49,490 nt of DNA from Syntrophales bacterium (GTDB lineage Bacteria > Desulfobacterota > Syntrophia > Syntrophales > UBA2192), in the NCBI GenBank assembly GCA_035685905.1, contig DASRZY010000228.1, forward strand, positions 1 through 49,490. The letters are read 5' to 3'. Within the stretch, counting starts at the first letter, position 1; each line of letters opens with the position of its first letter. The notes beneath the pieces were generated by a model. The model saw only the letters and a program-made list of their open reading frames with translations, had not been told where the DNA came from and did not search any database. The position numbers and the translations under genes were made by a program. Positions 724-44,263 of the stretch are shown in pieces.

Positions 724-825
724 CAGTTCAGTTAGTTCAACAAAGCAGTTCGTTAGTGACCTGGTTCGGAACCAAGGAACTAACGAACTAACGGACGTCT
801 GTTATTTGTCGAACCAACAGAACGG
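724..825. repeat. GAAC/GTTC-word inverted repeat element in the serC-radA divergent intergenic region
   Basis: cagttcgttagt (746-757) pairs with actaacgaactaacgg. GAAC occurs at 769, 777 and 785 (period 8), followed by gaaccaacagaacgg and a T6 run. It uses the same words as the elements at 8974, 15751 and 24786. Confidence 0.7.
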
Positions 826-833
826 TTTTTTCT

Positions 834-7186: not shown

Positions 7187-8982
7187 CCGTGCCCTTCGAG
7201 CGCAGGGGAATCTATGTCTGCCTGGTGCTTGCCGCGGCAGTGCTGGCGGTCTATTACCCCGTGATGGGCTTCGATTTTGTCAACCTCGATGACCAGCTCT
7301 ATGCTTACGAAAACCCCCACGTGCGGGCGGGGATCACCCCGGCAGGCATCCAGTGGGCCTTCACGAACCTCGATGCCAATTTCTGGCACCCGCTCACGTG
7401 GCTCTCCCACATGCTCGACTGGCAGCTCTTCGGTGACTGGGCGGGCGGGCACCACGCCATGGGCCTGTTGCTGCACGTGGCAAACACGCTCATTCTTTTC
7501 ATGGCGCTTGCGCGGCTGACAAACCGCTTCTGGGAAAGCGCCGCCGTGGCGGCCCTTTTTGCCCTCCACCCGCTCCACGTGGAATCGGTGGCCTGGGTGT
7601 CGGAACGCAAAGACGTTCTGAGCACGCTGTTCTTCATGCTCACGCTGCTTGCCTATCCGCGATACGTGGAAAAACGCACGCCGGGACGTTACCTGTGTGT
7701 CCTCACACCCTATGCGCTGGGCCTCATGGCAAAGCCGATGCTCGTGACGGTTCCTTTCGTCCTGTTGCTCCTGGATGCCTGGCCGCTTCAGCGTTTCGGG
7801 AGCGGAGGCCTGCGATGGGATGCTGCAAAGACTGTGATCCTGGAAAAAATCCCCTTCGTGGTTCTCGCCGTGCCGGCCGGAGTCATGGCCGTCGTTGCCC
7901 AGGGCAGGGGCGCGGCACTGGCCGGAATGGATCTGGTGCCCCTCGACATGCGGCTTTCCAATGCCGCCCTTTCGACCGTGGCGTACCTGGGGAAAACGGT
8001 CTTGCCCGTTGATCTGGCCGTTTCCTATCCGCTGGAACCTGTTCCTGCGGGGATGGCCATCAGTGCAGGCCTTATTCTCGCGGCGATCACGGCAATTGCG
8101 CTGCCTGCGATCCGGCGGTGCCCCTATGTCACGACCGGGTGGCTCTGGTACCTTGGAACGCTTGCACCCGTGAGCGGGCTCATCCAGGTGGGTACCCACT
8201 CCATGGCGGACAGGTACACGTACATCCCGCTCGTCGGTATCTTCATCATCGTTGCCTGGGGGGCATCGGATCTTCTCTCCCGTGCCCGGCGGTGGAGGGT
8301 GCTTGCCGCCTTCGGGGCCTGTGCGCTTGCGCTGGCGATCGGGGCCGTAACGTGCTATCAGCTCCAGTACTGGAGCGACAGTGAAACGCTCATGCGCCGC
8401 ACGCTGGCCGTGACGGGTCCGAACGGGATCGCCGAGAACAACCTGGCCACGGCTCTCACACTGCGGGGTGCTTACGATGAGGCGCTCCCCCATGCCCTGC
8501 GCGCCGTCACGCTGCGGCCGGCCGATGAAGAGGTGGTCTTCAACATGGGCAACACTCTGGCAGGCCTGCGACGCGACGATGAAGCGAAGGCCTGGATGGA
8601 GAAGTCCATCGAGATGAACCCGCGTCTCGACAGGGCGTATACCAACCTGGGCGCCCTGCTCATCCGGCAGAGGCGTTTCGATGAGGCGATTGGGAATCTG
8701 AAGATCGCAATGGGCCTCAACCCGGCAAGCCCCGTGTTGAGGCTCAACATGGCCGTGGCTCTTGCAGCGACAGGAAGGACCGATGATGCGGCGGCTCATC
8801 TCGAGGAGGCCGTGAAACTGGCGCCGGGTTCTCTGCTTCTGCGGACAAAGGCGGTACAGACCTGGTGGAGGATGGGCCTGCAGGACAGGGCCCTTCACGA
8901 GAACGAGTGGATACGAAACGTTGACGGCAAGCTGGCCGATGAGATCTCTCGGTGGATGGAAGAGCAAAAAGAAGTTCGTTAG
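7183..8982 (+). CDS. membrane glycosyltransferase-like (PMT_2/DUF1736, TMTC-like) protein with C-terminal TPR repeats
   Basis: ATGA overlap with the upstream stop (7183-7186). Conserved FVNLDD..FWHPLTWLSHMLD..ALHPLHVESVAWVSERKDVL block and TPR repeats in the C-terminal third. Confidence 0.85.
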   Translation: MTVPFERRGIYVCLVLAAAVLAVYYPVMGFDFVNLDDQLYAYENPHVRAGITPAGIQWAFTNLDANFWHPLTWLSHMLDWQLFGDWAGGHHAMGLLLHVANTLILFMALARLTNRFWESAAVAALFALHPLHVESVAWVSERKDVLSTLFFMLTLLAYPRYVEKRTPGRYLCVLTPYALGLMAKPMLVTVPFVLLLLDAWPLQRFGSGGLRWDAAKTVILEKIPFVVLAVPAGVMAVVAQGRGAALAGMDLVPLDMRLSNAALSTVAYLGKTVLPVDLAVSYPLEPVPAGMAISAGLILAAITAIALPAIRRCPYVTTGWLWYLGTLAPVSGLIQVGTHSMADRYTYIPLVGIFIIVAWGASDLLSRARRWRVLAAFGACALALAIGAVTCYQLQYWSDSETLMRRTLAVTGPNGIAENNLATALTLRGAYDEALPHALRAVTLRPADEEVVFNMGNTLAGLRRDDEAKAWMEKSIEMNPRLDRAYTNLGALLIRQRRFDEAIGNLKIAMGLNPASPVLRLNMAVALAATGRTDDAAAHLEEAVKLAPGSLLLRTKAVQTWWRMGLQDRALHENEWIRNVDGKLADEISRWMEEQKEVR

Positions 8983-9070
8983 TTCAGCGCCGCGCCGCGG
9001 CGGGGTTTACGTTTTACGTGATTACGTTTTAAGCAAGAAAAAGAACCAACGAACCAACGAACTAACGAAC
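8974..9070. repeat. GTTC/GAAC inverted octamer arrays flanking a GC hairpin and a TTACGT 8-mer array
   Basis: The left arm gttcgttagttc overlaps the stop codon at 8980-8982. The core is gccgcgccgcggc plus tttacgttttacgtgattacgtttt. The right arm has GAAC at 9043, 9051, 9059 and 9067 (period 8), followed by a T5 run. Confidence 0.75.
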
Positions 9071-9077
9071 TGTTTTT

Positions 9078-11210
9078 ATGCCCATGAATTTCAAAATCGA
9101 CCGGAACAAATTGCTGATCGCCCTGCTGCTCGTCGCGGCCACGGCGGCCGTATACGGGCAGGTGATCGGCTTCCGTTTTGTCAATCTCGACGACAATCCA
9201 TACGTGCTGGACAATGCCAACGTACTGAAGGGGTTGACCCTGAAGGGTGTCCTCTGGGCCTTCACATCCTTCGACGCCGATTTCTGGCACCCGCTCACCT
9301 GGCTCTCCCACATGCTCGACGTGGAGCTCTGGGGCCTCTGGGCCGGCGGGCATCACCTCACGAGCCTGTTGATACACCTGGCCAACACGGCCCTTCTCTT
9401 CCTTGCCCTGGCGGCCATGACCGGGGCAAATGGCCGGAGCGCGGCCGTGGCGGCCCTCTTTGCGCTGCATCCGCTCCACGTGGAATCGGTGGCCTGGGTG
9501 GCGGAGCGAAAGGATGTCCTGAGCACCTTTTTCTTCATGCTCACCTTGCTGGCCTACGTGAAGTACTGCCGCACAGGCCGGCGGGTTCACTATGGCCTCG
9601 TCGTGCTCGTCTTCGTCCTGGGCCTCATGGCAAAGCCCATGCTCGTCACGGTCCCCCTGGTCCTGTTGCTCCTGGATCTCTGGCCCTTGCGGCGGTTCAG
9701 CCTGCAGGACCTCAGGAGCCCGCGGACCCTTCTTCCGCTTCTCGAGGAAAAGTTGCCGTTTCTCGCGGTCGGATTTCTTTTCGGCATTGTGGCCATTGTC
9801 GCGCAGATCCACAGCGGCGTGGCCTTGCCCTTTTCCGGCGGTTACCCGATGTGGATCCGGATCGTCAATGCCATGGTCTCCTACGGATCCTACCTTGCGC
9901 TGGCCGTCTGGCCCTCGGGGCTCGTCCCCGTCTACCAACACGCGGGTGAAGATGTGTCCCTCTGGAAGGCGGGTGTTTCCGTCGCGGCAATTGCGGCTGC
10001 AGCGGCCTTTGCATGCTGGAAGGCCAGGAAGTACCCCTACCTGATCGTTGGTCTTGCCTGGTATCTGATCACGCTGCTGCCCGTCATCGGGATCCTCCAG
10101 GTGGGCTGGCATTCCATGGCGGATCGGTATACCTACATTCCTCTCATCGGAATCTTCATCGCGGCCGCCTGGGGAATGAACGATCTTGCGGAGGGAAAAC
10201 CCTGGGGGAAGGCCGCCCTGGCCGTCGCAACAGGTGGCGTCATGGGCGCGCTGATGATCGCAACCTGGATCCAGGTCGGGCACTGGAAGGACAGCACCCG
10301 ACTTTTCGAATATATCGTCACGGCAAGCCCGGGAAACGCGCTGGCCCACAACAACCTCGGCTCTGCCTACCAGGGCGAGGGCAGGATGCAGGATGCCATC
10401 GTCCAGTACCACGAGGCCATTCGCATCAAGCCGTACTTCCTGAAGGCCCACGTCAACCTCGCCCTGGCCATGGACCGGGAGGGACGGTCCGACATCGCCA
10501 TCGCCTTTTTCCAGCACGTCATCATGAACTGGCCCCAGTTCGGCGCCGGCTACGCCATGCTGGCCGATATCCTGAAAAAGCAGGAAAAGCCGAGCGAGGC
10601 AATCACGAGATACCTGGAGTCGCTGCAGATCGAGGAGTACCCCGAGGTCCATGTGAGACTGGGCCAGCTTCTGGCCAACGAAGGCAAGACGGAAGAGGCC
10701 GCCTTTCACTTCTACCGCGCCCTGGAGATGCAGCCCGCGCTTGTCGATGCGCGGGTGAATCTGGGGATTCTCCTCCTGCGCAAAGGCATGATCGAGGAAG
10801 CCCGGAAGGAGTACCTCACGGCCCTGCGGTATGCCCCCAATCTTGCTGAGGCTCATTTCAGCCTGGGGAACCTGTACCTGCGGGAAGGAAAGCTTGAGGA
10901 GGCCCACAGGCATCTCTCCGAGGCGGTGAAGGCGAAGCCCGACCACGCCGGCGCACGGACAAACCTGGGTGTGACCCTGGGGCGACAGGGAAAGATCAAG
11001 GAAGCTGCCGCACAGCTGGAAAAGGCCGTTGAACTCAACCCCGGCTCTGCCGAGGCGCGGGACAATCTGGCAAAGGCTTATTGGGTACTGGGGCGCAGGG
11101 ATGAGGCACTGCGTGAGGCTGCCGCCCTCAAGAAGATCAAGCCCGCTGACGCCGAAGCCCTCCGGCTGTGGATGAATTCGAGGGGCGCCGGAACGAATCC
11201 CCGGAACTGA
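9078..11210 (+). CDS. paralogous TMTC-like membrane glycosyltransferase-like protein with a longer TPR tail
   Basis: The N-terminal ~170 aa are near-colinear with 7183..8982 (FVNLDD, FWHPLTWLSHMLD, ALHPLHVESVAWVAERKDVLSTFFFMLTLLAY). Multiple TPRs follow (AHNNLGSAY.., AHFSLGNLY..). Confidence 0.85.
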   Translation: MPMNFKIDRNKLLIALLLVAATAAVYGQVIGFRFVNLDDNPYVLDNANVLKGLTLKGVLWAFTSFDADFWHPLTWLSHMLDVELWGLWAGGHHLTSLLIHLANTALLFLALAAMTGANGRSAAVAALFALHPLHVESVAWVAERKDVLSTFFFMLTLLAYVKYCRTGRRVHYGLVVLVFVLGLMAKPMLVTVPLVLLLLDLWPLRRFSLQDLRSPRTLLPLLEEKLPFLAVGFLFGIVAIVAQIHSGVALPFSGGYPMWIRIVNAMVSYGSYLALAVWPSGLVPVYQHAGEDVSLWKAGVSVAAIAAAAAFACWKARKYPYLIVGLAWYLITLLPVIGILQVGWHSMADRYTYIPLIGIFIAAAWGMNDLAEGKPWGKAALAVATGGVMGALMIATWIQVGHWKDSTRLFEYIVTASPGNALAHNNLGSAYQGEGRMQDAIVQYHEAIRIKPYFLKAHVNLALAMDREGRSDIAIAFFQHVIMNWPQFGAGYAMLADILKKQEKPSEAITRYLESLQIEEYPEVHVRLGQLLANEGKTEEAAFHFYRALEMQPALVDARVNLGILLLRKGMIEEARKEYLTALRYAPNLAEAHFSLGNLYLREGKLEEAHRHLSEAVKAKPDHAGARTNLGVTLGRQGKIKEAAAQLEKAVELNPGSAEARDNLAKAYWVLGRRDEALREAAALKKIKPADAEALRLWMNSRGAGTNPRN

Positions 11211-13970: not shown

Positions 13971-15614
<1,644 letters not shown>

Positions 15615-15649
15615 GAAGAGGCGATTTGCCCCTTTCTCGAGAACGAAAA

Positions 15650-15680
15650 AGCCTCCTGCCCCGGCAGGGGGCTTTTTTTA
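15650..15680 (+). terminator. rho-independent terminator after groEL
   Basis: agcctcctgcc / ggcagggggct stem followed by T7. Confidence 0.8.
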
Positions 15681-15750
15681 TCCCGCAGCGGTATTCATCC
15701 GCCTTGAAACTCGGGGAACAATGTGATAATTGCTACAGATTCGTAAAACA

Positions 15751-15885
15751 GTTCGTTAAGTTCCATTGGTTCTGTTAGTTCTATTGGTTCGAGAAAGAAA
15801 AGAAGTTTGTTGGCAGGATGCTTCCTGGGGGAATCTCCCTCCATTTTGAACCAATTGAACCAATAGAACTAGCGAACTAACGAAC
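15751..15885. repeat. large inverted repeat built from GTTC (left) and GAAC (right) 8-9-nt periodic words, immediately upstream of ileS
   Basis: GTTC at 15751, 15760, 15769, 15778 and 15787. GAAC at 15848, 15857, 15866, 15874 and 15882. A perfect 13-bp inner stem (gttctattggttc/gaaccaatagaac) and an outer ~12-bp stem surround a 57-nt purine-rich core. A T-rich run (15891-15903) follows. Confidence 0.85.
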
Positions 15886-15927
15886 GCATTTGTTTTTTTT
15901 GTTTGATCGTGTCTGGAGGACATACCG

Positions 15928-18720
15928 ATGGATTACAAAAGTACCCTGAATCTGCCCAAGACCGATTTCCCCATGAAGGCCAGCCTTTCCAAGAAAGAGC
16001 CGGAAACGCTCGGCTGGTGGGAGCAGATCCGCATCTACGACAAGATCCGCGAGGTCTCCAAGGGCCGCCCGACCTACATCCTTCATGACGGCCCCCCGTA
16101 CGCCAACGGAGACATCCACCTCGGCACGGCCCTGAACAAGATCATCAAGGACCTCGTCATCAAGTCGAAGAACATGGCCGGCTTCGACAGCATCTACGTG
16201 CCCGGCTGGGACTGCCACGGCCTTCCCATCGAGCACCAGGTGGACAAGGAGCTGGGCGACAGGAAAGGGACTCTCACGCAGGCCGAGAAGCGGCGGTACT
16301 GCCGCAAGTACGCCGAGAAGTTCGTGGGCATCCAGCGCGACGAGTTCAAACGTCTCGGTGTCTTCGGCGAGTGGGACAACCCCTACCTCACCATGGCGTA
16401 CGAGTACGAGTCCATCACGGCGGCTGAGTTCGCCAGGCTGATGCTCAGCGGCGACGTCTACAAGGGCAAGAAGCCCGTCTACTGGTGCGCCACCTGCAAG
16501 ACGGCGCTTGCCGAGGCCGAGGTGGAGTACGGCGATCACGTGACGCCGGCCATCTACGTCAAGTTCCCCATGATCTCGGACATCTCGGCCGTGCGCCCGA
16601 AGCTCAAGGGCGAGAAGGTCTTTGCCGTCATCTGGACGACGACCCCCTGGACGATCCCGGCCAACCTGGCCATCGCCTTCCACAAGGAGTTCATCTACGC
16701 CGCCGTGAAGGTGAAGCAGACAGGGGAGGTCCTCATCATGGCCAGGGACCTCGTGGACTACTGCATGGACGCCTTCGGGTTCAAGGAATACGAGATCCTC
16801 GACGAGTTCCCCGGCGAGGTGGTGGAAGGCCTCAAGGCCAAGCACCCCTTCATCGACCGGGAGAGCGTCTTCATCCTGGCCCCCTTCGTCACCCTCGATG
16901 CCGGCACGGGCATGGTCCACATCGCCCCGGGCCACGGCGCCGAGGACTACGAGATCGGCATGGAGTACGGTCTTGACAACTACGCACCCGTCGACGAGGA
17001 CGGCAACTTCACGAAGGACGTGGAATTCTTCGCCGGACAGTTCGTCTTCGACGCCAACGGGGCCGTAAACAGGAAGCTCAAGGAAGTGGGGGCGCTCCTG
17101 GGCGTGGGGGACATCGAGCACTCCTACCCCCATTGCTGGCGCTGCAAGAAGCCCATCATCTTCCGCTCCACCGAGCAGTGGTTCATCTCCATGGAGAAAA
17201 ACGGGCTTCGAAAAAAGGCCCTCGAGAGCATCAACAGCGTCCAGTGGTTCCCCTCGTGGGGGCGCGACCGGATCTACGGCATGGTGGAGAACCGCCCCGA
17301 CTGGTGCATCTCCCGCCAGCGTCTCTGGGGTGTGCCCATCATCCTTTTCTACTGCAAAGCGTGCGACACGGTCGTTTACTCGAAAGAGATCCTCGACCAC
17401 GTCGTGGGGCTCATGCGCGAGCATGGCGCAGATGTCTGGTTCGAGCGCGAGCCGAAGGACCTGATGCCCGCGGGCACGGCCTGCCCGGACTGCAAAGGCA
17501 CGACGTTCCGCAAGGAGACCAATATCCTGGATGTCTGGTTCGACTCCGGCGTGAGCCACGCCGCCGTTCTCGAGACAAGGAGCTACCTGCGTTCCCCCTG
17601 CGACATGTACCTCGAGGGCAGCGACCAGCACCGCGGCTGGTTCCACTCGTCTTTGCTCGAGTCTGTGGGGACCCGCGGCCGGGCGCCTTACAAGACGGTG
17701 CTCACCCATGGTTTCGTCGTCGACGGCGAGGGGAAGAAAATGTCCAAGTCCGTGGGCAACGTCATCGACCCCCAGGCGATCATCGACAAGTTCGGCGCCG
17801 AGATCCTTCGTCTCTGGGTTGCCGCCGAGGACTACACCGACGACATCCGGATCTCCGACGAGATCCTGGAGCGCCTCGTCGAGGCGTATCGCCGCATTCG
17901 AAACACGAGCCGCTACATCCTGGGCAACCTCTACGATTTCGATGCGAAGAAGGACATGGTCCCCTACGGCGAGATGGAAGAAATCGACCGCTGGGCCCTC
18001 TGGCGCCTGCAGGCCCTCATCGAGCGGACGCGGAAGGCCTACGAGAACTTCCAGTTCCATATGGTTTACTACACGCTGTACAACTTCTGCACGGTGGATC
18101 TCAGCTCGCTTTATCTCGACGTGCTGAAGGACCGCCTCTACACATCGGGCAAGGCCTCGAAGGGCCGGCGCTCCGCGCAAAGCGCCATGTTCATCATTCT
18201 CGACGCCATGACGAGGATGCTTGCCCCGATCCTCACGTTCACCGCCGAGGAGGTGTGGCGGAGCCTGCCCGCCTATGAAGGCAAGGCTGCAAGCGTCCAC
18301 CTGACTCAGTTTCCGGAAGTGAACGCGGCCTGGGCCGACGAGAAACTGGGCGAGACCTGGAAGACCCTGATTGCCGTGCGCGGCGAGATCTCCAAGGCGA
18401 TGGAGACGGCCCGGAAGAACAAGGTCATTGGCCACCCGCTCGATGCGGCCGTGACCGTTACCGGCCCGGAGAAACTGACGGAGCTTCTCGCGAAGTACGA
18501 GGAGGACATGAAAGCGTTCTGCATCATCTCGGGGTTCCGCGTGCAGAAGGGCGGTGAACTGAAAGATGCCTTCGAGAGCACGGAACTTCCCGGCCTGAAG
18601 GTTGCCGTGACGAAGGCCGGCGGCGCAAAGTGCGAGCGCTGCTGGGTCTTCAGCGAGGAACTGGGGCGCGATTCGAACCACCCGAAGATCTGCCCGAAGT
18701 GCCTGGCGAACCTGCAGTAG
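15928..18720 (+). CDS. ileS: isoleucine--tRNA ligase
   Basis: 930 aa with HLGTALNK (HIGH-type), KMSKS and a C-terminal Zn-binding CxxC pair. Confidence 0.98.
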
Positions 18721-19296: not shown

Positions 19297-19299
19297 AAC

Positions 19300-19394
19300 G
19301 GAATGATGGAATAATGGAATGATGGAATACTGGGTCATGGAGGAGATTCTTCGTACCCAACATTCCAGCATTCCAATATTCCATTACTCCATTC
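19300..19394. repeat. inverted GGAAT/ATTCC octamer arrays between convergent lspA and the 3D-domain gene
   Basis: GGAAT at 19300, 19308, 19316 and 19324. ATTCC at 19362, 19370 and 19378, with a degenerate unit at 19386. The core is gggtcatggaggagattcttcgtaccc. The right arm overlaps the stop codon at 19384-19386. Confidence 0.85.
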
Positions 19395-22483: not shown

Positions 22484-22689
22484 TGTTCCTCAATGTTTTC
22501 GGGACGCAATCACGTCCGATTCTTTCATTGCCGGGAAGCCCCGCCCTGTGGGCGCGGAGCTTCACAAGGCGTTCACCCACAGGGAGGCAGCCCGTGCCGG
22601 AAAACAGGGATCATCGCGATGCGCCTGCCGGAGCGCAGGGGAGGCGGGAAGCAGCCGGCGGCCGGGAGGTAACGGAGCGCCTGATTGCA

Positions 22690-24675
22690 ATGGATCCGCT
22701 TCTCGAGCCGTATCGCAGAAAATTGGACGAACGCATGCGGCGTGTCGTGGAGATGGAAAAGCGTCTGACGGGCGGGCGGATGAGCCTTGCCGACTTCGCA
22801 AGCGGTCATGAGTATTTCGGCCTGCATCGACGGGGGGGAGAGTGGGTGCTGCGGGAGTGGGCGCCGAATGCAACCCGCATCTGTCTGGTCGGGACCATGA
22901 CCGACTGGCAGGAAAAAAGCGCCTTCACGCTGGAAAAACCGGATGGCGCCGACGGTGTCTGGGAGATCCGTCTTCCACCGGACGCCATGAGCCACGGCGA
23001 TCTCTACCGGCTCCGGGTCCACTGGATCGGGGGGCAGGGCGATCGAATCCCCGCCTGGGCCCGGCGCGTCGTGCAGGACCCCCGCTCCCTCATCTTCAAC
23101 GCCCAGGTCTGGGACCCGCCTGCTCCGTATCGCTGGCAGCAGGAAGGGTTCCGGTGTCCGGCGAAACCGCCGTTCATCTACGAGACGCACGTGGGCATGG
23201 CCCAGGAAAAAGAAGGCATCGGCACGTACCGGGAATTCACGGAAAGCATCCTGCCGCGCATCGTCCGCTCGGGCTACAACGTCATTCAGCTCATGGCGAT
23301 CCAGGAGCATCCCTACTACGGATCCTTCGGCTACCAGGTGACCAATTTCTTTGCCGCCTCGTCGCGATTCGGGACACCGGAGGAGCTCAAGGAGCTGATC
23401 GATGCGGCCCATGCCGAGGGCCTCTGCGTGATCATGGACCTCATCCACTCCCATGCCGCATCGAACGAGGTGGAGGGCCTGAGCCGCTTCGACGGCACAC
23501 TGCACCAGTACTTCCACAAGGGCCCGAGGGGCCTCCACGAGGCCTGGGGCTCGCGCTGCTTCGATTACGCGAAACACCAGGTCCTGCACTTCCTGCTGTC
23601 CAACTGCCGGTTCTGGCTCGACGAGTATCGTTTTGACGGCTTCCGGTTCGACGGCGTGACAAGCATGCTCTACCTGCACCACGGTCTGGGAAAGGCCTTC
23701 CTGTCCTACGACGATTATTTCGACGGGACCGTCGATCATGACGCCCTGGCCTACCTGACCCTGGCGAACCGCGTGATCCACGATGTGCGGCCCGATGCCG
23801 TCACCATTGCCGAGGATGTCAGCGGGATGCCGGGGCTTGCCCTGCCCTCGGCCCGGGGGGGGACCGGATTCGACTACCGGTTCGCCATGGGTGTGCCCGA
23901 CTACTGGATCCGGCTCACCAAGGACACGGCAGACGAGGACTGGCCCCTCGGGCAGCTGTGGCACGAACTCAACAACCGCCGGCACGACGAGAAGACCATC
24001 AGCTATGCCGAATCGCACGACCAGGCCCTTGTGGGAGACAAGACACTCGTCTTCCGGATGATCGATGCCGACATGTACACCGGCATGAGCGTTTTTCAGG
24101 AGAATGTCCGCGTGGACCGGGGAGTGGCGCTGCACAAGATGATCCGCCTGGTGACACTGGCCACTGCAGGAAACGGCTATCTGAATTTCATGGGAAATGA
24201 ATACGGCCATCCCGAGTGGATCGATTTCCCGCGGGAGGGGAACGGCTGGTCCTACAAATACGCACGGCGGCAGTGGAGCCTCGTGGACAACGGCACGCTG
24301 CGATACCGGTTCCTGGCGGCGTTTGATCGGGAGATGATCGGCCTGGCCCGGCAGATCGGCCTGCTGGGATCAGGGAACCCGCGCCTCACGCACGAGCACA
24401 ACGATTTCAAGGTCCTCGCCTTCGAGCGCGCGGGGCACCTGTTCATCTTCAACTTCCACCCGGCCCGTTCCTATGACGGCTATCGGATCGACACGCAGCC
24501 CGGGACGTACCGCCTCGTCCTGGACAGCGACGCCGAAATCTACGGCGGCCATGGGCGTCTCGAGCGCGACCAGGTCTACTTCACGCAGCCGGAAGAGAAG
24601 GGACCCGGCCTGCGCCATCAGCTTCTTGCCTACCTCCCCACCCGTACCGCTCTCGTCCTGCGCTTCGAGGAATGA
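22690..24675 (+). CDS. glgB: 1,4-alpha-glucan branching enzyme, GH13_8 (eukaryote-like) type
   Basis: Intact GH13 motifs: DLIHSH, GFRFDGVTSM, IAEDVSG, AESHDQ. ATG at 22690, and the upstream part of the track ORF is non-coding leader. Confidence 0.9.
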   Translation: MDPLLEPYRRKLDERMRRVVEMEKRLTGGRMSLADFASGHEYFGLHRRGGEWVLREWAPNATRICLVGTMTDWQEKSAFTLEKPDGADGVWEIRLPPDAMSHGDLYRLRVHWIGGQGDRIPAWARRVVQDPRSLIFNAQVWDPPAPYRWQQEGFRCPAKPPFIYETHVGMAQEKEGIGTYREFTESILPRIVRSGYNVIQLMAIQEHPYYGSFGYQVTNFFAASSRFGTPEELKELIDAAHAEGLCVIMDLIHSHAASNEVEGLSRFDGTLHQYFHKGPRGLHEAWGSRCFDYAKHQVLHFLLSNCRFWLDEYRFDGFRFDGVTSMLYLHHGLGKAFLSYDDYFDGTVDHDALAYLTLANRVIHDVRPDAVTIAEDVSGMPGLALPSARGGTGFDYRFAMGVPDYWIRLTKDTADEDWPLGQLWHELNNRRHDEKTISYAESHDQALVGDKTLVFRMIDADMYTGMSVFQENVRVDRGVALHKMIRLVTLATAGNGYLNFMGNEYGHPEWIDFPREGNGWSYKYARRQWSLVDNGTLRYRFLAAFDREMIGLARQIGLLGSGNPRLTHEHNDFKVLAFERAGHLFIFNFHPARSYDGYRIDTQPGTYRLVLDSDAEIYGGHGRLERDQVYFTQPEEKGPGLRHQLLAYLPTRTALVLRFEE

Positions 24676-24748: not shown

Positions 24749-24812
24749 CACTGAAAACTTGAAACCCGCGCCCAGCGGGCGCGCGGAACCAACGAACTAA
24801 CGAACCAACGAA
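24749..24812. repeat. TGAAA-word array plus GC hairpin plus GAAC octamer array between convergent glgB and kef
   Basis: cactgaaaacttgaaacccgcgcccagcgggcgcgcgg is homologous to 2968-3003. GAAC at 24786, 24794 and 24802 (period 8). Confidence 0.75.
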
Positions 24813-33931: not shown

Positions 33932-33997
33932 TGCCCGTTACATAGACGAAGGAAGAAGGGCAAAGGCAAAAGGAAAAAGGAGACTGTAATCAGAGAT

Positions 33998-40588: not shown

Positions 40589-40593
40589 GGAAA

Positions 40594-40617
40594 GGGTCAA
40601 GGGTAAAGGGTTAAGGG
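40594..40617 (+). repeat. GGG heptamer array (canonical G4 motif) right after the ppsA stop codon
   Basis: GGG at 40594, 40601, 40608 and 40615 (exact 7-nt period): gggtcaagggtaaagggttaaggg. Confidence 0.8.
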
Positions 40618-40636
40618 TAAACGAAGCACGACAACC

Positions 40637-43591: not shown

Positions 43592-43655
43592 TGTCACCCT
43601 CACCCTGACCCTCTCCCCTCAAGGGAGAGGGAACCTGAGAGGAAGGGTTCCTGTA
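43592..43655 (+). repeat. REP-like element, copy 3 (abuts the IS right end)
   Basis: tcaccctcaccctgaccctctcccctcaagggagagggaacc. C-runs at 43597, 43603, 43609 and 43615. Confidence 0.65.
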
Positions 43656-43672: not shown

Positions 43673-44066
43673 GTGTCGGAGCAGGCTGTAAGCCGAGTTT
43701 TGTTCCCCCCCTCGGTCACCCTCCGGGGGGCGATGATCATTAATCTGGGACAGCAGTTGCCTGCTGCCTCAAGCGACCTACCCGGGAGCTCGGGCGGGCT
43801 ACCCTCAAGCGCTCCCCTACATGGTCTTGCTCCGGATGGGGTTTACCTTGCTTCCCCGGTCACCCGGGGAACGGTGAGCTCTTACCTCGCCTTTTCACCC
43901 TTACCCTTCAACTCGGCCTGACGGCCTCGCTCAAGGGCGGTATGTTTTCTGTGGCACTTTCCCTGGGGTCGCCCCCGGTCGCCGTTAGCGACCATCCTGC
44001 CCTGTGGAGCTCGGACTTTCCTCCAGCCTCGTGTTGGGCCAGCGATCATCCTGCCTGCTCCGGCAC
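43673..44066 (-). ncRNA. rnpB: RNase P RNA, bacterial type A
   Basis: The minus strand reads ..CGGAGCAGGC..GAGGAAAGTCCGAGCTCCACAGGGCAGG..GGGAAAGTGCCACAGAAAACATACCGCC..AGGTAAGAGCTCACCG..GGTAAACCCCATCCGGAGCAAGACC..ACAAAACTCGGCTTACAGCCTGCTCCG. The P1 halves are at 44053-44062 and 43677-43686. The ends are approximate, within a few nt. Confidence 0.92.
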
Positions 44067-44118
44067 GGCTCATTCTCCAATGACGGCGCTATCTTTGCAA
44101 CAGGTATTTCTTAAACTA

Positions 44119-44263
44119 GGGACGAGGGACAAGGGGGTAGGGACGAGTAAGAAGTGCGTAAGTGCCTAAGTGTTTGAGTGAAGATTGGAAAAGAGGATTG
44201 TTCTTCTGTAGCCTGCGCGAAGCGCTCACTCATGCACTTCCGCACTCAGACACTCATGCACTG
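44119..44263. repeat. composite element: GGG heptamer array, then inverted GTG/CAC octamer arrays around a purine-rich core
   Basis: GGG at 44119, 44126, 44133 and 44140. GTG at 44154, 44162, 44170 and 44178. CAC at 44227, 44235, 44243, 44251 and 44259. The right arm overlaps the rnhA stop codon. Confidence 0.85.

Follow-up and report, generated by a model that had tools for sequence, protein, structure and literature searches.

What is the large hairpin, built of short periodic GTTC and GAAC words, that separates groEL from ileS in a Syntrophales genome, and what could such a structure do in front of ileS? We analyzed it within the 49,490-nt stretch of contig DASRZY010000228.1 that contains it (the window), the sequence of which matches a wetland metagenome contig. 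With moderate confidence, we favor the view that it is an SSR hairpin belonging to a dispersed, lineage-specific family of the LSSR/STRR class and that it acts as a generic cis RNA structure in the ileS leader.

Structure and genomic setting of the ileS hairpin

The element had been noticed in a reading of the DNA made without database searches (the sequence-only reading), which placed five GTTC words opposite five GAAC words in a large hairpin that is followed by a T-run and then by the ileS SD. All of these positions hold (Table 1), and the segment from 15740 to 15915, folded as RNA, reaches −56.8 kcal/mol (z = −4.89; 0 of 200 shuffles as good). In the predicted fold, the main stem comprises 45 pairs (5 of them G-U) extending from 15745-15896 to 15794-15844, and leaves 5 bases of the 5' arm and 3 of the 3' arm unpaired; the stem breaks coincide with the variable filler positions of the words, and a 5-nt bulge precedes the A/U extension. 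The pairing originally proposed, with 13 inner and ~12 outer base pairs, needs revision in part. The outer 12 bp of the arms do pair, with a 1-nt bulge, but the perfect inner pairing is 15 bp long and joins 15776-15790 with 15857-15871 in a register shifted by one word, so that the arms amount to a multi-register zipper. Similarly, the 57-nt core exists, but its supposed purine richness comes down to a purine content of 54%, with only the first 15 nt being all-purine. On the 3' side of the second arm, the order is tgttttttttgtttg, the SD GGAGG, and the ileS ATG. We also observed that the 5' part of the core (15789-15823, TCGAGAAAGAAAA...GGCAGGATGCTT) resembles the groEL terminator region (15637-15674, TCGAGAACGAAAA...GGCAGGGGGCTT) at matching spacing (152 and 149 nt), and duplication of the terminator followed by decay may have given rise to the core.

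Table 1. Positions in the window of the ileS hairpin, its surroundings, and other word arrays
Feature	Position	Strand	Description
Copy A	726-831	+	Nested GTTC/GAAC hairpins (726-738/811-823; 747-767/769-789), U6 run; −39.1 kcal/mol, z = −4.6
Copy B	8967-9077	+	5' arm 8967-8985, GAACYAAC array 9043-9070, U5 run; z = −3.6
groEL intrinsic terminator	15646-15680	+	GC-rich stem with C-rich 5' arm, then T7; conserved in relatives
Promoter-like block	15703-15731	+	CTTGAAACTC-N3-GRRCAATRTGRTAAKT; conserved; directly after the groEL terminator
ileS hairpin, A-tract	15745-15750	+	AAAACA; predicted stem extension via pairing with UGUUUU at 15891-15896
ileS hairpin, 5' arm	15751-15790	+	Five GTTC words (15751, 15760, 15769, 15778, 15787), 9-nt period; G/T-rich, C-poor
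ileS hairpin, core (loop)	15791-15847	+	57 nt; two mini-hairpins (15814-15827, 15828-15840)
ileS hairpin, 3' arm	15848-15885	+	Five GAAC words (15848, 15857, 15866, 15874, 15882), periods of 9, 9, 8, and 8 nt; A/C-rich, G-poor
U-rich tract	15889-15904	+	TTTGTTTTTTTTGTTT, 3' of the stem
ileS SD and start	15915-15930	+	GGAGG 15915-15919, ATG 15928; unpaired in the predicted big hairpin
GGAATRAT word hairpin	19297-19393		GGAATRAT x4 versus ATTCC-type x4, mismatch every 8 nt; −48.3 kcal/mol, z = −7.1
Copy D	24786-24812	+	Lone GAACYAAC array, 3.4 units, convergent genes, no partner arm; unstructured, z = −1.0
AAGGGTN heptamers	40591-40621		4.4 units, four G3 tracts, right past a stop codon
GGGTNAG-type array	43594-43617		On the other strand
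AGGGACG array and hairpin	44118-44262		AGGGACG x4, then AAGTGCNT versus CACTCATG hairpin, then T-run

That the arms are arrays of words and not the halves of a simple palindrome, as had been proposed, is borne out by the pattern GAAC-N4-5-GAAC-N4-5-GAAC, which has 10 matches on the two strands of the window against 0.07 expected from shuffles. TRF returns tandem-repeat rows at 15760-15790, 15846-15885, 769-793, 9043-9070, and 24786-24812. The arrays of the ileS element consist of at least three head-to-tail units of 5 to 11 nt and are longer than expected by chance, the properties that define LSSR(5-11)/STRR arrays.

IleS homologues assign the DNA to an uncultured Syntrophales bacterium, and the gene order groES-groEL-ileS-lspA is kept in relatives. 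As the sequence-only reading had it, the element lies 3' of a normal groEL terminator, and it is not needed for groEL termination. The promoter-like block between the two combines TTGAAA (15704-15709) with a TG-extended −10-like TGaTAATTG (15724-15732), 17 nt apart. It is identical or nearly so, with diverging flanks, in three related loci (L002, L003, and L004) and in the 12 metagenome loci recovered by a scan with the block, all 12 of which are upstream of ileS; the ileS SD region is also conserved among relatives. A scan for consensus sigma-70 promoters did not call the block. In sludge metatranscriptomes, RNA contigs of L003 begin 27 to 40 nt 3' of the block and run into ileS, and none of them extends over the terminator or the block. 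Among wetland and peat metatranscriptome contigs, the ileS element is uncovered, with only conserved groEL/ileS pieces of other organisms mapping, and L004 was not found in the RNA runs. We infer that the block is the ileS promoter and, because the block and the SD are conserved around a variable cassette and given the L003 RNA coverage, that the hairpin lies in the ileS 5' UTR, starting ~6 nt from the putative 5' end. The earlier placement of the element upstream of ileS is thus correct as to position and is refined to a probable location inside the ileS 5' UTR, past the conserved block.

The same leader slot holds other words in relatives

In at least 12 related Syntrophales lineages, the ileS leader slot contains hairpins of other words or decayed ones. 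The word pairs found there include AAGGC/GCCTT and GGCTAAA/CCTTAGC: L128 and L133 set AAGGC-type against GCCTTA-type words, L132 has seven GGCTAAA against four CCTTAGC in unequal arms, and L130 and L004 carry different purine/pyrimidine word hairpins. The leaders of L002, L127, L134, and L135 retain decayed remnants whose folding is at the level of shuffled sequences (z near 0). U-runs are absent from the relatives' leader hairpins. Since the slot can hold other or decayed hairpins, the element is no riboswitch, T-box, or leader peptide dedicated to ileS. Comparison with sister genomes, which the sequence-only reading had suggested, shows this leader slot to be hypervariable among related lineages.

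Variation is also seen at closer range. A sister GTTC/GAAC allele, found on one contig from soil/sediment runs, differs by 23 substitutions and 6 small gaps. The 5' arm accounts for four of these changes and the 3' arm for none, so the changes are not compensatory. The U-rich tract is unaltered in this allele (run X4), and the two copies differ by substitutions and 1-nt indels only, with no change in unit number. On other soil/sediment contigs, the segment 15743-15942 is swapped for 90 unrelated nt, and the spacer containing a further copy of the family (copy A) is swapped for 129 to 189 nt in related strains.

Two observations concern other words. In L128, L130, L132, and L133, the 5'-arm words (UAAGGC and AAAGGC) are SD-like, the 3'-arm words (GCCUUA and CCCUUAG) are like the 16S anti-SD tail, and the 3' arm continues straight into the true SD (GCCUCGGAGG). 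Upstream of hisI (PRA-CH), the window has an AAGGMAA array (33949-33981) and a 94%-identical relative has a CAGGCTA array (L002, 16135-16161), another case in which one slot holds different words in related genomes.

A GAACYAAC family with variable unit numbers

GAACYAAC is the commonest array word of the window, with five arrays at four loci, all of them intergenic, and more array-only contigs with this unit occur in the same metagenomes. The family is absent from ~157 kb of relatives, where GGCTAAA and AGGGTNN are the preferred words. The recurrences that had been reported are found at 726-823, 8974-9070, and 24786-24812 (copies A, B, and D, the ileS element being copy C). The family words are GTTCGTTA / TAACGAAC, and copies A, B, and C have in common an end motif, AAACAGTTCGTTAGTTC, with five arm matches at three loci against 0.03 expected. 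Sharing among copies is limited to these 17-nt ends; the interiors are unrelated, with loops of 1 nt in copy A and 57 nt in both copy B and the ileS copy. In copies A, B, and C, A-runs and U-runs lengthen the stem, and the U-run starts 2 nt past the stem in copies A and B. Independent slippage is insufficient to account for the presence, at several loci, of a single word family whose copies share an end motif; such a recurrence requires either that copies pass from locus to locus or that some agent selects for the word itself.

Copy A ends 3 nt 5' of the ATG of a radA-like gene (834). The gene before copy B has its stop codon inside the 5' arm of that copy, and the start of a TPR gene follows the copy at 9078. 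Neither the radA-like nor the TPR gene has an SD (826-836 and 9073-9080). The ATGs of both genes lie 1 to 3 nt past the U-run that trails the GAAC array.

The suspicion that the arrays are prone to slippage is supported by an array of this family. The window and the contig L001 are ~99.9% identical over 16.5 kb, and their sole indel is a +16-nt difference (two units) at 9043-9070; other population contigs have +8- and −8-nt alleles at this site. Among near-identical sequences, the array before the TPR gene (L001 3100-3143) is found with 2.5, 3.5, 4.5, and 5.5 units. Gain and loss of whole 8-nt units is a signature of slipped-strand mispairing, and the alleles point to slippage as the source of length change in GAACYAAC arrays. 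The array acts like a VNTR in a 5' UTR and could modulate the TPR gene. Elsewhere in the same alignment, the identity of ~99.9% holds up to 22500 and is followed by ~25 differences in 250 nt (window 22519-22764, L001 16576-16820), around the start of the ORF at 22528-24675; this divergence may reflect the edge of a recombined segment or a gene start that is hypervariable.

Distribution across phyla and arm polarity

Octamer arrays of this kind are not unique to the window: a pattern search of the type advocated by the sequence-only reading, run with GAACYAACGAACYAACGAAC on one genome per species, recovered at least 119 loci in many phyla. Among the matches listed are Wenzhouxiangella, Vicinamibacterales, Bacteroidota, Omnitrophota, Planctomycetota, Chloroflexota, and others, along with a dozen inverted pairs with arms of up to 117 nt; viral contigs have 6 matches only. 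The GTTCG/CGAAC core is conserved, and the fillers are variable and non-complementary. The genomes with GAACYAACGAACYAACGAAC arrays have neighboring tracts of many other 7- to 8-nt repeats, and 71 of the 86 arrays in other genomes are outside called genes, in agreement with the intergenic placement seen in the window. Satellite-like GAACYAACGAACYAACGAAC matches were left out as probable contamination. In L110, L107, and L093 ("Metamycoplasmataceae" MAG), (GTTCGTTG)n and (GTTC)n tracts of kilobase length lie next to a long (CA)n microsatellite and are probably eukaryotic host satellite binned into a bacterial MAG.

The arms of these hairpins have a fixed polarity. In close GTTC/GAAC pairs, the GT-rich arm comes before the AC-rich arm in 18 of 18 cases. 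In ~1 Mb of loci, the inverted repeats whose arms measure 18 nt or more include 30 hairpins with periodic arms, and in all 30 of them G exceeds C in the 5' arm, as it does in 19 of 19 with words other than GTTC/GAAC; the nonperiodic hairpins are split 22:18. Single arrays behave accordingly: with gene calls by a GC3 heuristic, those at most ~40 nt past stop codons have G>C on the sense strand (52:9), and those at most ~40 nt before start codons have C>G (28:3). The canonical terminators of the window have the reverse polarity, with a C-rich 5' arm. Because G-rich arrays follow stops and C-rich arrays precede starts, the arm polarity points to a constraint at the level of RNA rather than to DNA binding.

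Possible function and competing explanations

The SSR hairpin is an inverted pair in which five GTTC-N5 units are followed by five GAAC-N4-5 units. When transcribed, its arms would form a 45-bp stem punctuated by mismatches close to the 5' end of the mRNA, with a U-run behind it. This predicted stem would act in cis as a leaky terminator or insulator and/or as a 5' stem that slows decay, with no sensing of isoleucine; a generic UTR hairpin under weak selection, be it a leaky terminator or a stabilizer, is most likely. Selection would be weak, given that decayed versions exist in relatives, and would bear mostly on arm polarity. Past stop codons, C-poor, stop-rich sequence would be favored, C-poor words being stop-rich because none of the three stop codons contains C, and before start codons the preference would be for G-poor sequence free of starts or SD motifs. 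An alternative basis for the polarity could be avoidance of Rho: a C-rich, G-poor arm that came first in the transcript would leave a loading site for Rho exposed. As to termination, a terminator scan did not call the ileS hairpin; the base of its stem is A/U-rich and its U8 run begins 7 nt past the last GAAC, so that it is not a canonical terminator, and the lack of U-runs in the relatives' leader hairpins shows that a termination role is not conserved.

Other explanations give the words themselves a reader. The sequence-only reading had considered a protein-binding array; for such arrays, the sense-strand polarity disfavors binding at the DNA level. The C-rich CGAAC words could be a landing pad on RNA for S1, a cold-shock protein, or another factor, with the G-rich arm as a mask, which would make SD-independent or regulated translation conditional. 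Several facts fit such an RNA array: the A/C-rich strand is the sense strand just 5' of starts (44:16, 30:7, and 21:2 in three counts), copies A and B adjoin start codons without an SD, the core word is kept as the fillers vary, and the TAACTGA repeats are a precedent (PMC4679880). Conservation of the GTTCG/CGAAC core with non-complementary fillers could likewise be the sign of a binding factor. We nevertheless consider this explanation rather unlikely. The ileS gene has a good SD of its own 30 nt past the arm, and the words at the ileS slot are wholly different in close relatives, which means that ileS expression does not depend on a conserved match between factor and word. The recurrence across phyla can be put down to the limited choice of G-poor octamers; with neighboring arrays using many other words and with some probable contamination among the matches, we do not take it as proof of a universal binding factor. 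A related and quite unlikely proposal is that hairpins with a G arm and a C arm, the GTTCG/CGAAC type of which is found in many phyla, are a generic, actively selected intercistronic device in which the G arm, being transcribed first, masks an S1/ribosome or Rho pad in the C arm and slippage tunes the mask. If this were true, the masking would be the reason for the strict polarity, slippage in unit number would provide heritable and rapidly adjustable expression of downstream genes, and the ileS hairpin would be an example of a mask tuned in this way.

A reader of DNA is less plausible still. Tandem words could be operators for a nucleoid-associated protein or global regulator (IHF/HU-like or ribbon-helix-helix-like), with the inverted arrays cooperating, and the architecture is the same as that of the class 1-3 "global regulator binding sites" of Geobacter (PMC2700814); copies A and C also start just 3' of promoter-like sequences, and the core of the words is conserved while the fillers vary. 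However, a period of 8 to 9 bp places successive sites on different faces of the helix, the arrays are oriented with the sense of whichever gene end, stop or start, lies next to them, an asymmetry of the RNA type, unit number drifts freely, whole cassettes are swapped between strains, and the IHF consensus is absent; we regard operators as improbable. No more probable is a non-autonomous mobile element (MITE, REP, or foldback-like) with subterminal words recognized by a transposase. The end motif on five arms at three loci, the fixed polarity of the ends, the lineage specificity of the family, and the association of IS elements with the Geobacter sites (PMC2700814) would all suit mobility. Yet copies A, B, and C have unrelated interiors (1 to 57 nt), relatives carry other cassettes, the same polarity is found in unrelated word families of many phyla, and viral contigs seldom have the pattern (6 matches). 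Neither the window nor its relatives has the near-identical full-length copies, target-site duplication, or empty site that would identify a REP/REPIN or MITE.

An ileS attenuator, in the form of a T-box, a leader peptide with Ile codons, or a terminator/antiterminator sensing isoleucine or tRNA-Ile, is suggested by the presence of a hairpin and U-run in the leader of an aminoacyl-tRNA synthetase gene and by a 21-codon ORF with three Ile codons that runs from the ATG at 15818 through the 3' arm. We find it extremely improbable, since elements of the same type precede radA and the TPR gene, and the leaders of relatives are unrelated and have no U-runs or such ORFs. The ORF at 15818 has no SD, is frameshifted in the sister allele (+G after 15826), and is missing in relatives; a leader peptide was accordingly rejected. 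A T-box or riboswitch was likewise rejected, there being no match in Rfam and no relationship among the leaders of relatives: no family reached its gathering score over the whole window, and nothing relevant was retrieved at E ≤ 10 for 15600-15960, the best match being a plant miRNA hairpin (E = 0.007) far below its threshold. The generic cis hairpin with arms of constrained polarity remains the explanation that we favor.

Relationship to known repeats

The sequence-only reading compared the arms with the cyanobacterial STRR heptamers, which were reportedly described by Mazel et al. in 1990. The analogy is apt, in that the STRR and LSSR arrays also consist of head-to-tail units of 7 to 9 nt, are non-coding, hypervariable, and slippage-prone, and are dominated by a few units per genome. 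The hairpin form with inverted pairs and the 8- to 9-nt GTTCG word are not defining features of the LSSR/STRR class. For LSSR(5-11), we follow the definition of Mrazek 2007 in the summary form given in PMC4679880.

The same reading did not recognize the repeat as a described family, and this holds only for the word. The architecture is catalogued in Geobacter metallireducens, where classes 1-3 comprise 24, 21, and 8 pairs, the two sites of a pair lying on opposite strands (Aklujkar et al. 2009, PMC2700814). These sites have three to five tandem octa- or heptanucleotides at variable spacing and are absent from G. sulfurreducens (PMC2700814). The arrays studied here resemble them in the tandem units of 7 to 9 nt, the opposite-strand pairing, and the variable spacing (5 + 5 words, 57 nt), in being intergenic, lineage specific, and found in Desulfobacterota, and in recurring at several loci, with four in the 49-kb window. 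The words differ (GTTGCTYN, TCTCCGTS[Y], and MTYCTGA in Geobacter versus GTTCGTTR / YAACGAAC), so that the consensus is not shared, and the association of the Geobacter sites with IS elements is not seen in the window. The binding of IHF/HU to the Geobacter sites is a hypothesis of the authors (PMC2700814); in contrast to their proposal of binding to DNA, the polarity described above favors an RNA-level constraint. The literature searched contained no relevant paper on the exact GAACYAAC words.

Two further repeats invite comparison. TAACTGA heptamers occur in Beggiatoaceae, Cyanobacteria, and Bacteroidetes, with a suggested role in translation (MacGregor 2015, PMC4679880). They are like the present arrays in their patchy spread across phyla and in the placement of sense arrays within a few nucleotides of SD-less starts, as in copies A and B and many arrays elsewhere. 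They differ in unit and in being nearly all direct repeats, with one inverted set, and the ileS copy lies 43 nt from its ATG, with a separate normal SD. For the GGGNATC repeats of Xanthomonas and Nostoc, Rehm et al. 2015 (PMC4692102) report that they are transcribed and that the G-rich strand is sense past stops and antisense before ORFs. The likeness extends to positional polarity, overrepresentation in non-coding DNA, and variable unit number; unlike the GTTC/GAAC words, which have no G-tracts, those repeats form G-quadruplexes and prefer four units (PMC4692102). Resemblance to REP/BIME/REPIN elements lies in the dispersed, imperfect, intergenic palindromes within transcription units, which may stabilize or terminate mRNA. 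REPs, however, are fixed palindromes of 20 to 40 nt with a GTAG head that are mobilized by RAYT and have no variable-number tandem words.

In many environmental bacteria, short-period tandem repeats take up an appreciable part of the DNA between genes, and they have been seen repeatedly, as STRR, LSSR, TAACTGA, and Geobacter sites. The present case documents hairpin-form arrays in the leader of an essential gene, the turnover of whole leaders between close strains, and natural polymorphism in unit number. The polarity (30/30; 52:9; 28:3) across unrelated words and phyla is a testable clue to an RNA constraint, such as translation hygiene or Rho avoidance. In annotation, such arrays should not be taken for riboswitches, sRNAs, or CRISPR-like arrays, and they are likely hot spots of assembly and strain variation.

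Other word arrays in the window

Further arrays of the window use AAGGGTN, ACAGCAG, and AAGGMAA. The GGAATRAT hairpin lies immediately past the lspA stop, between convergent genes, and has no U-run. The AGGGACG array and the hairpin behind it occupy the gap that separates the RNase P RNA gene (43674-44061, minus strand) from the next ORF on the minus strand. The AAGGGTN and GGGTNAG-type arrays fit the G-quadruplex motif and the placement of the GGGNATC repeats (PMC4692102).
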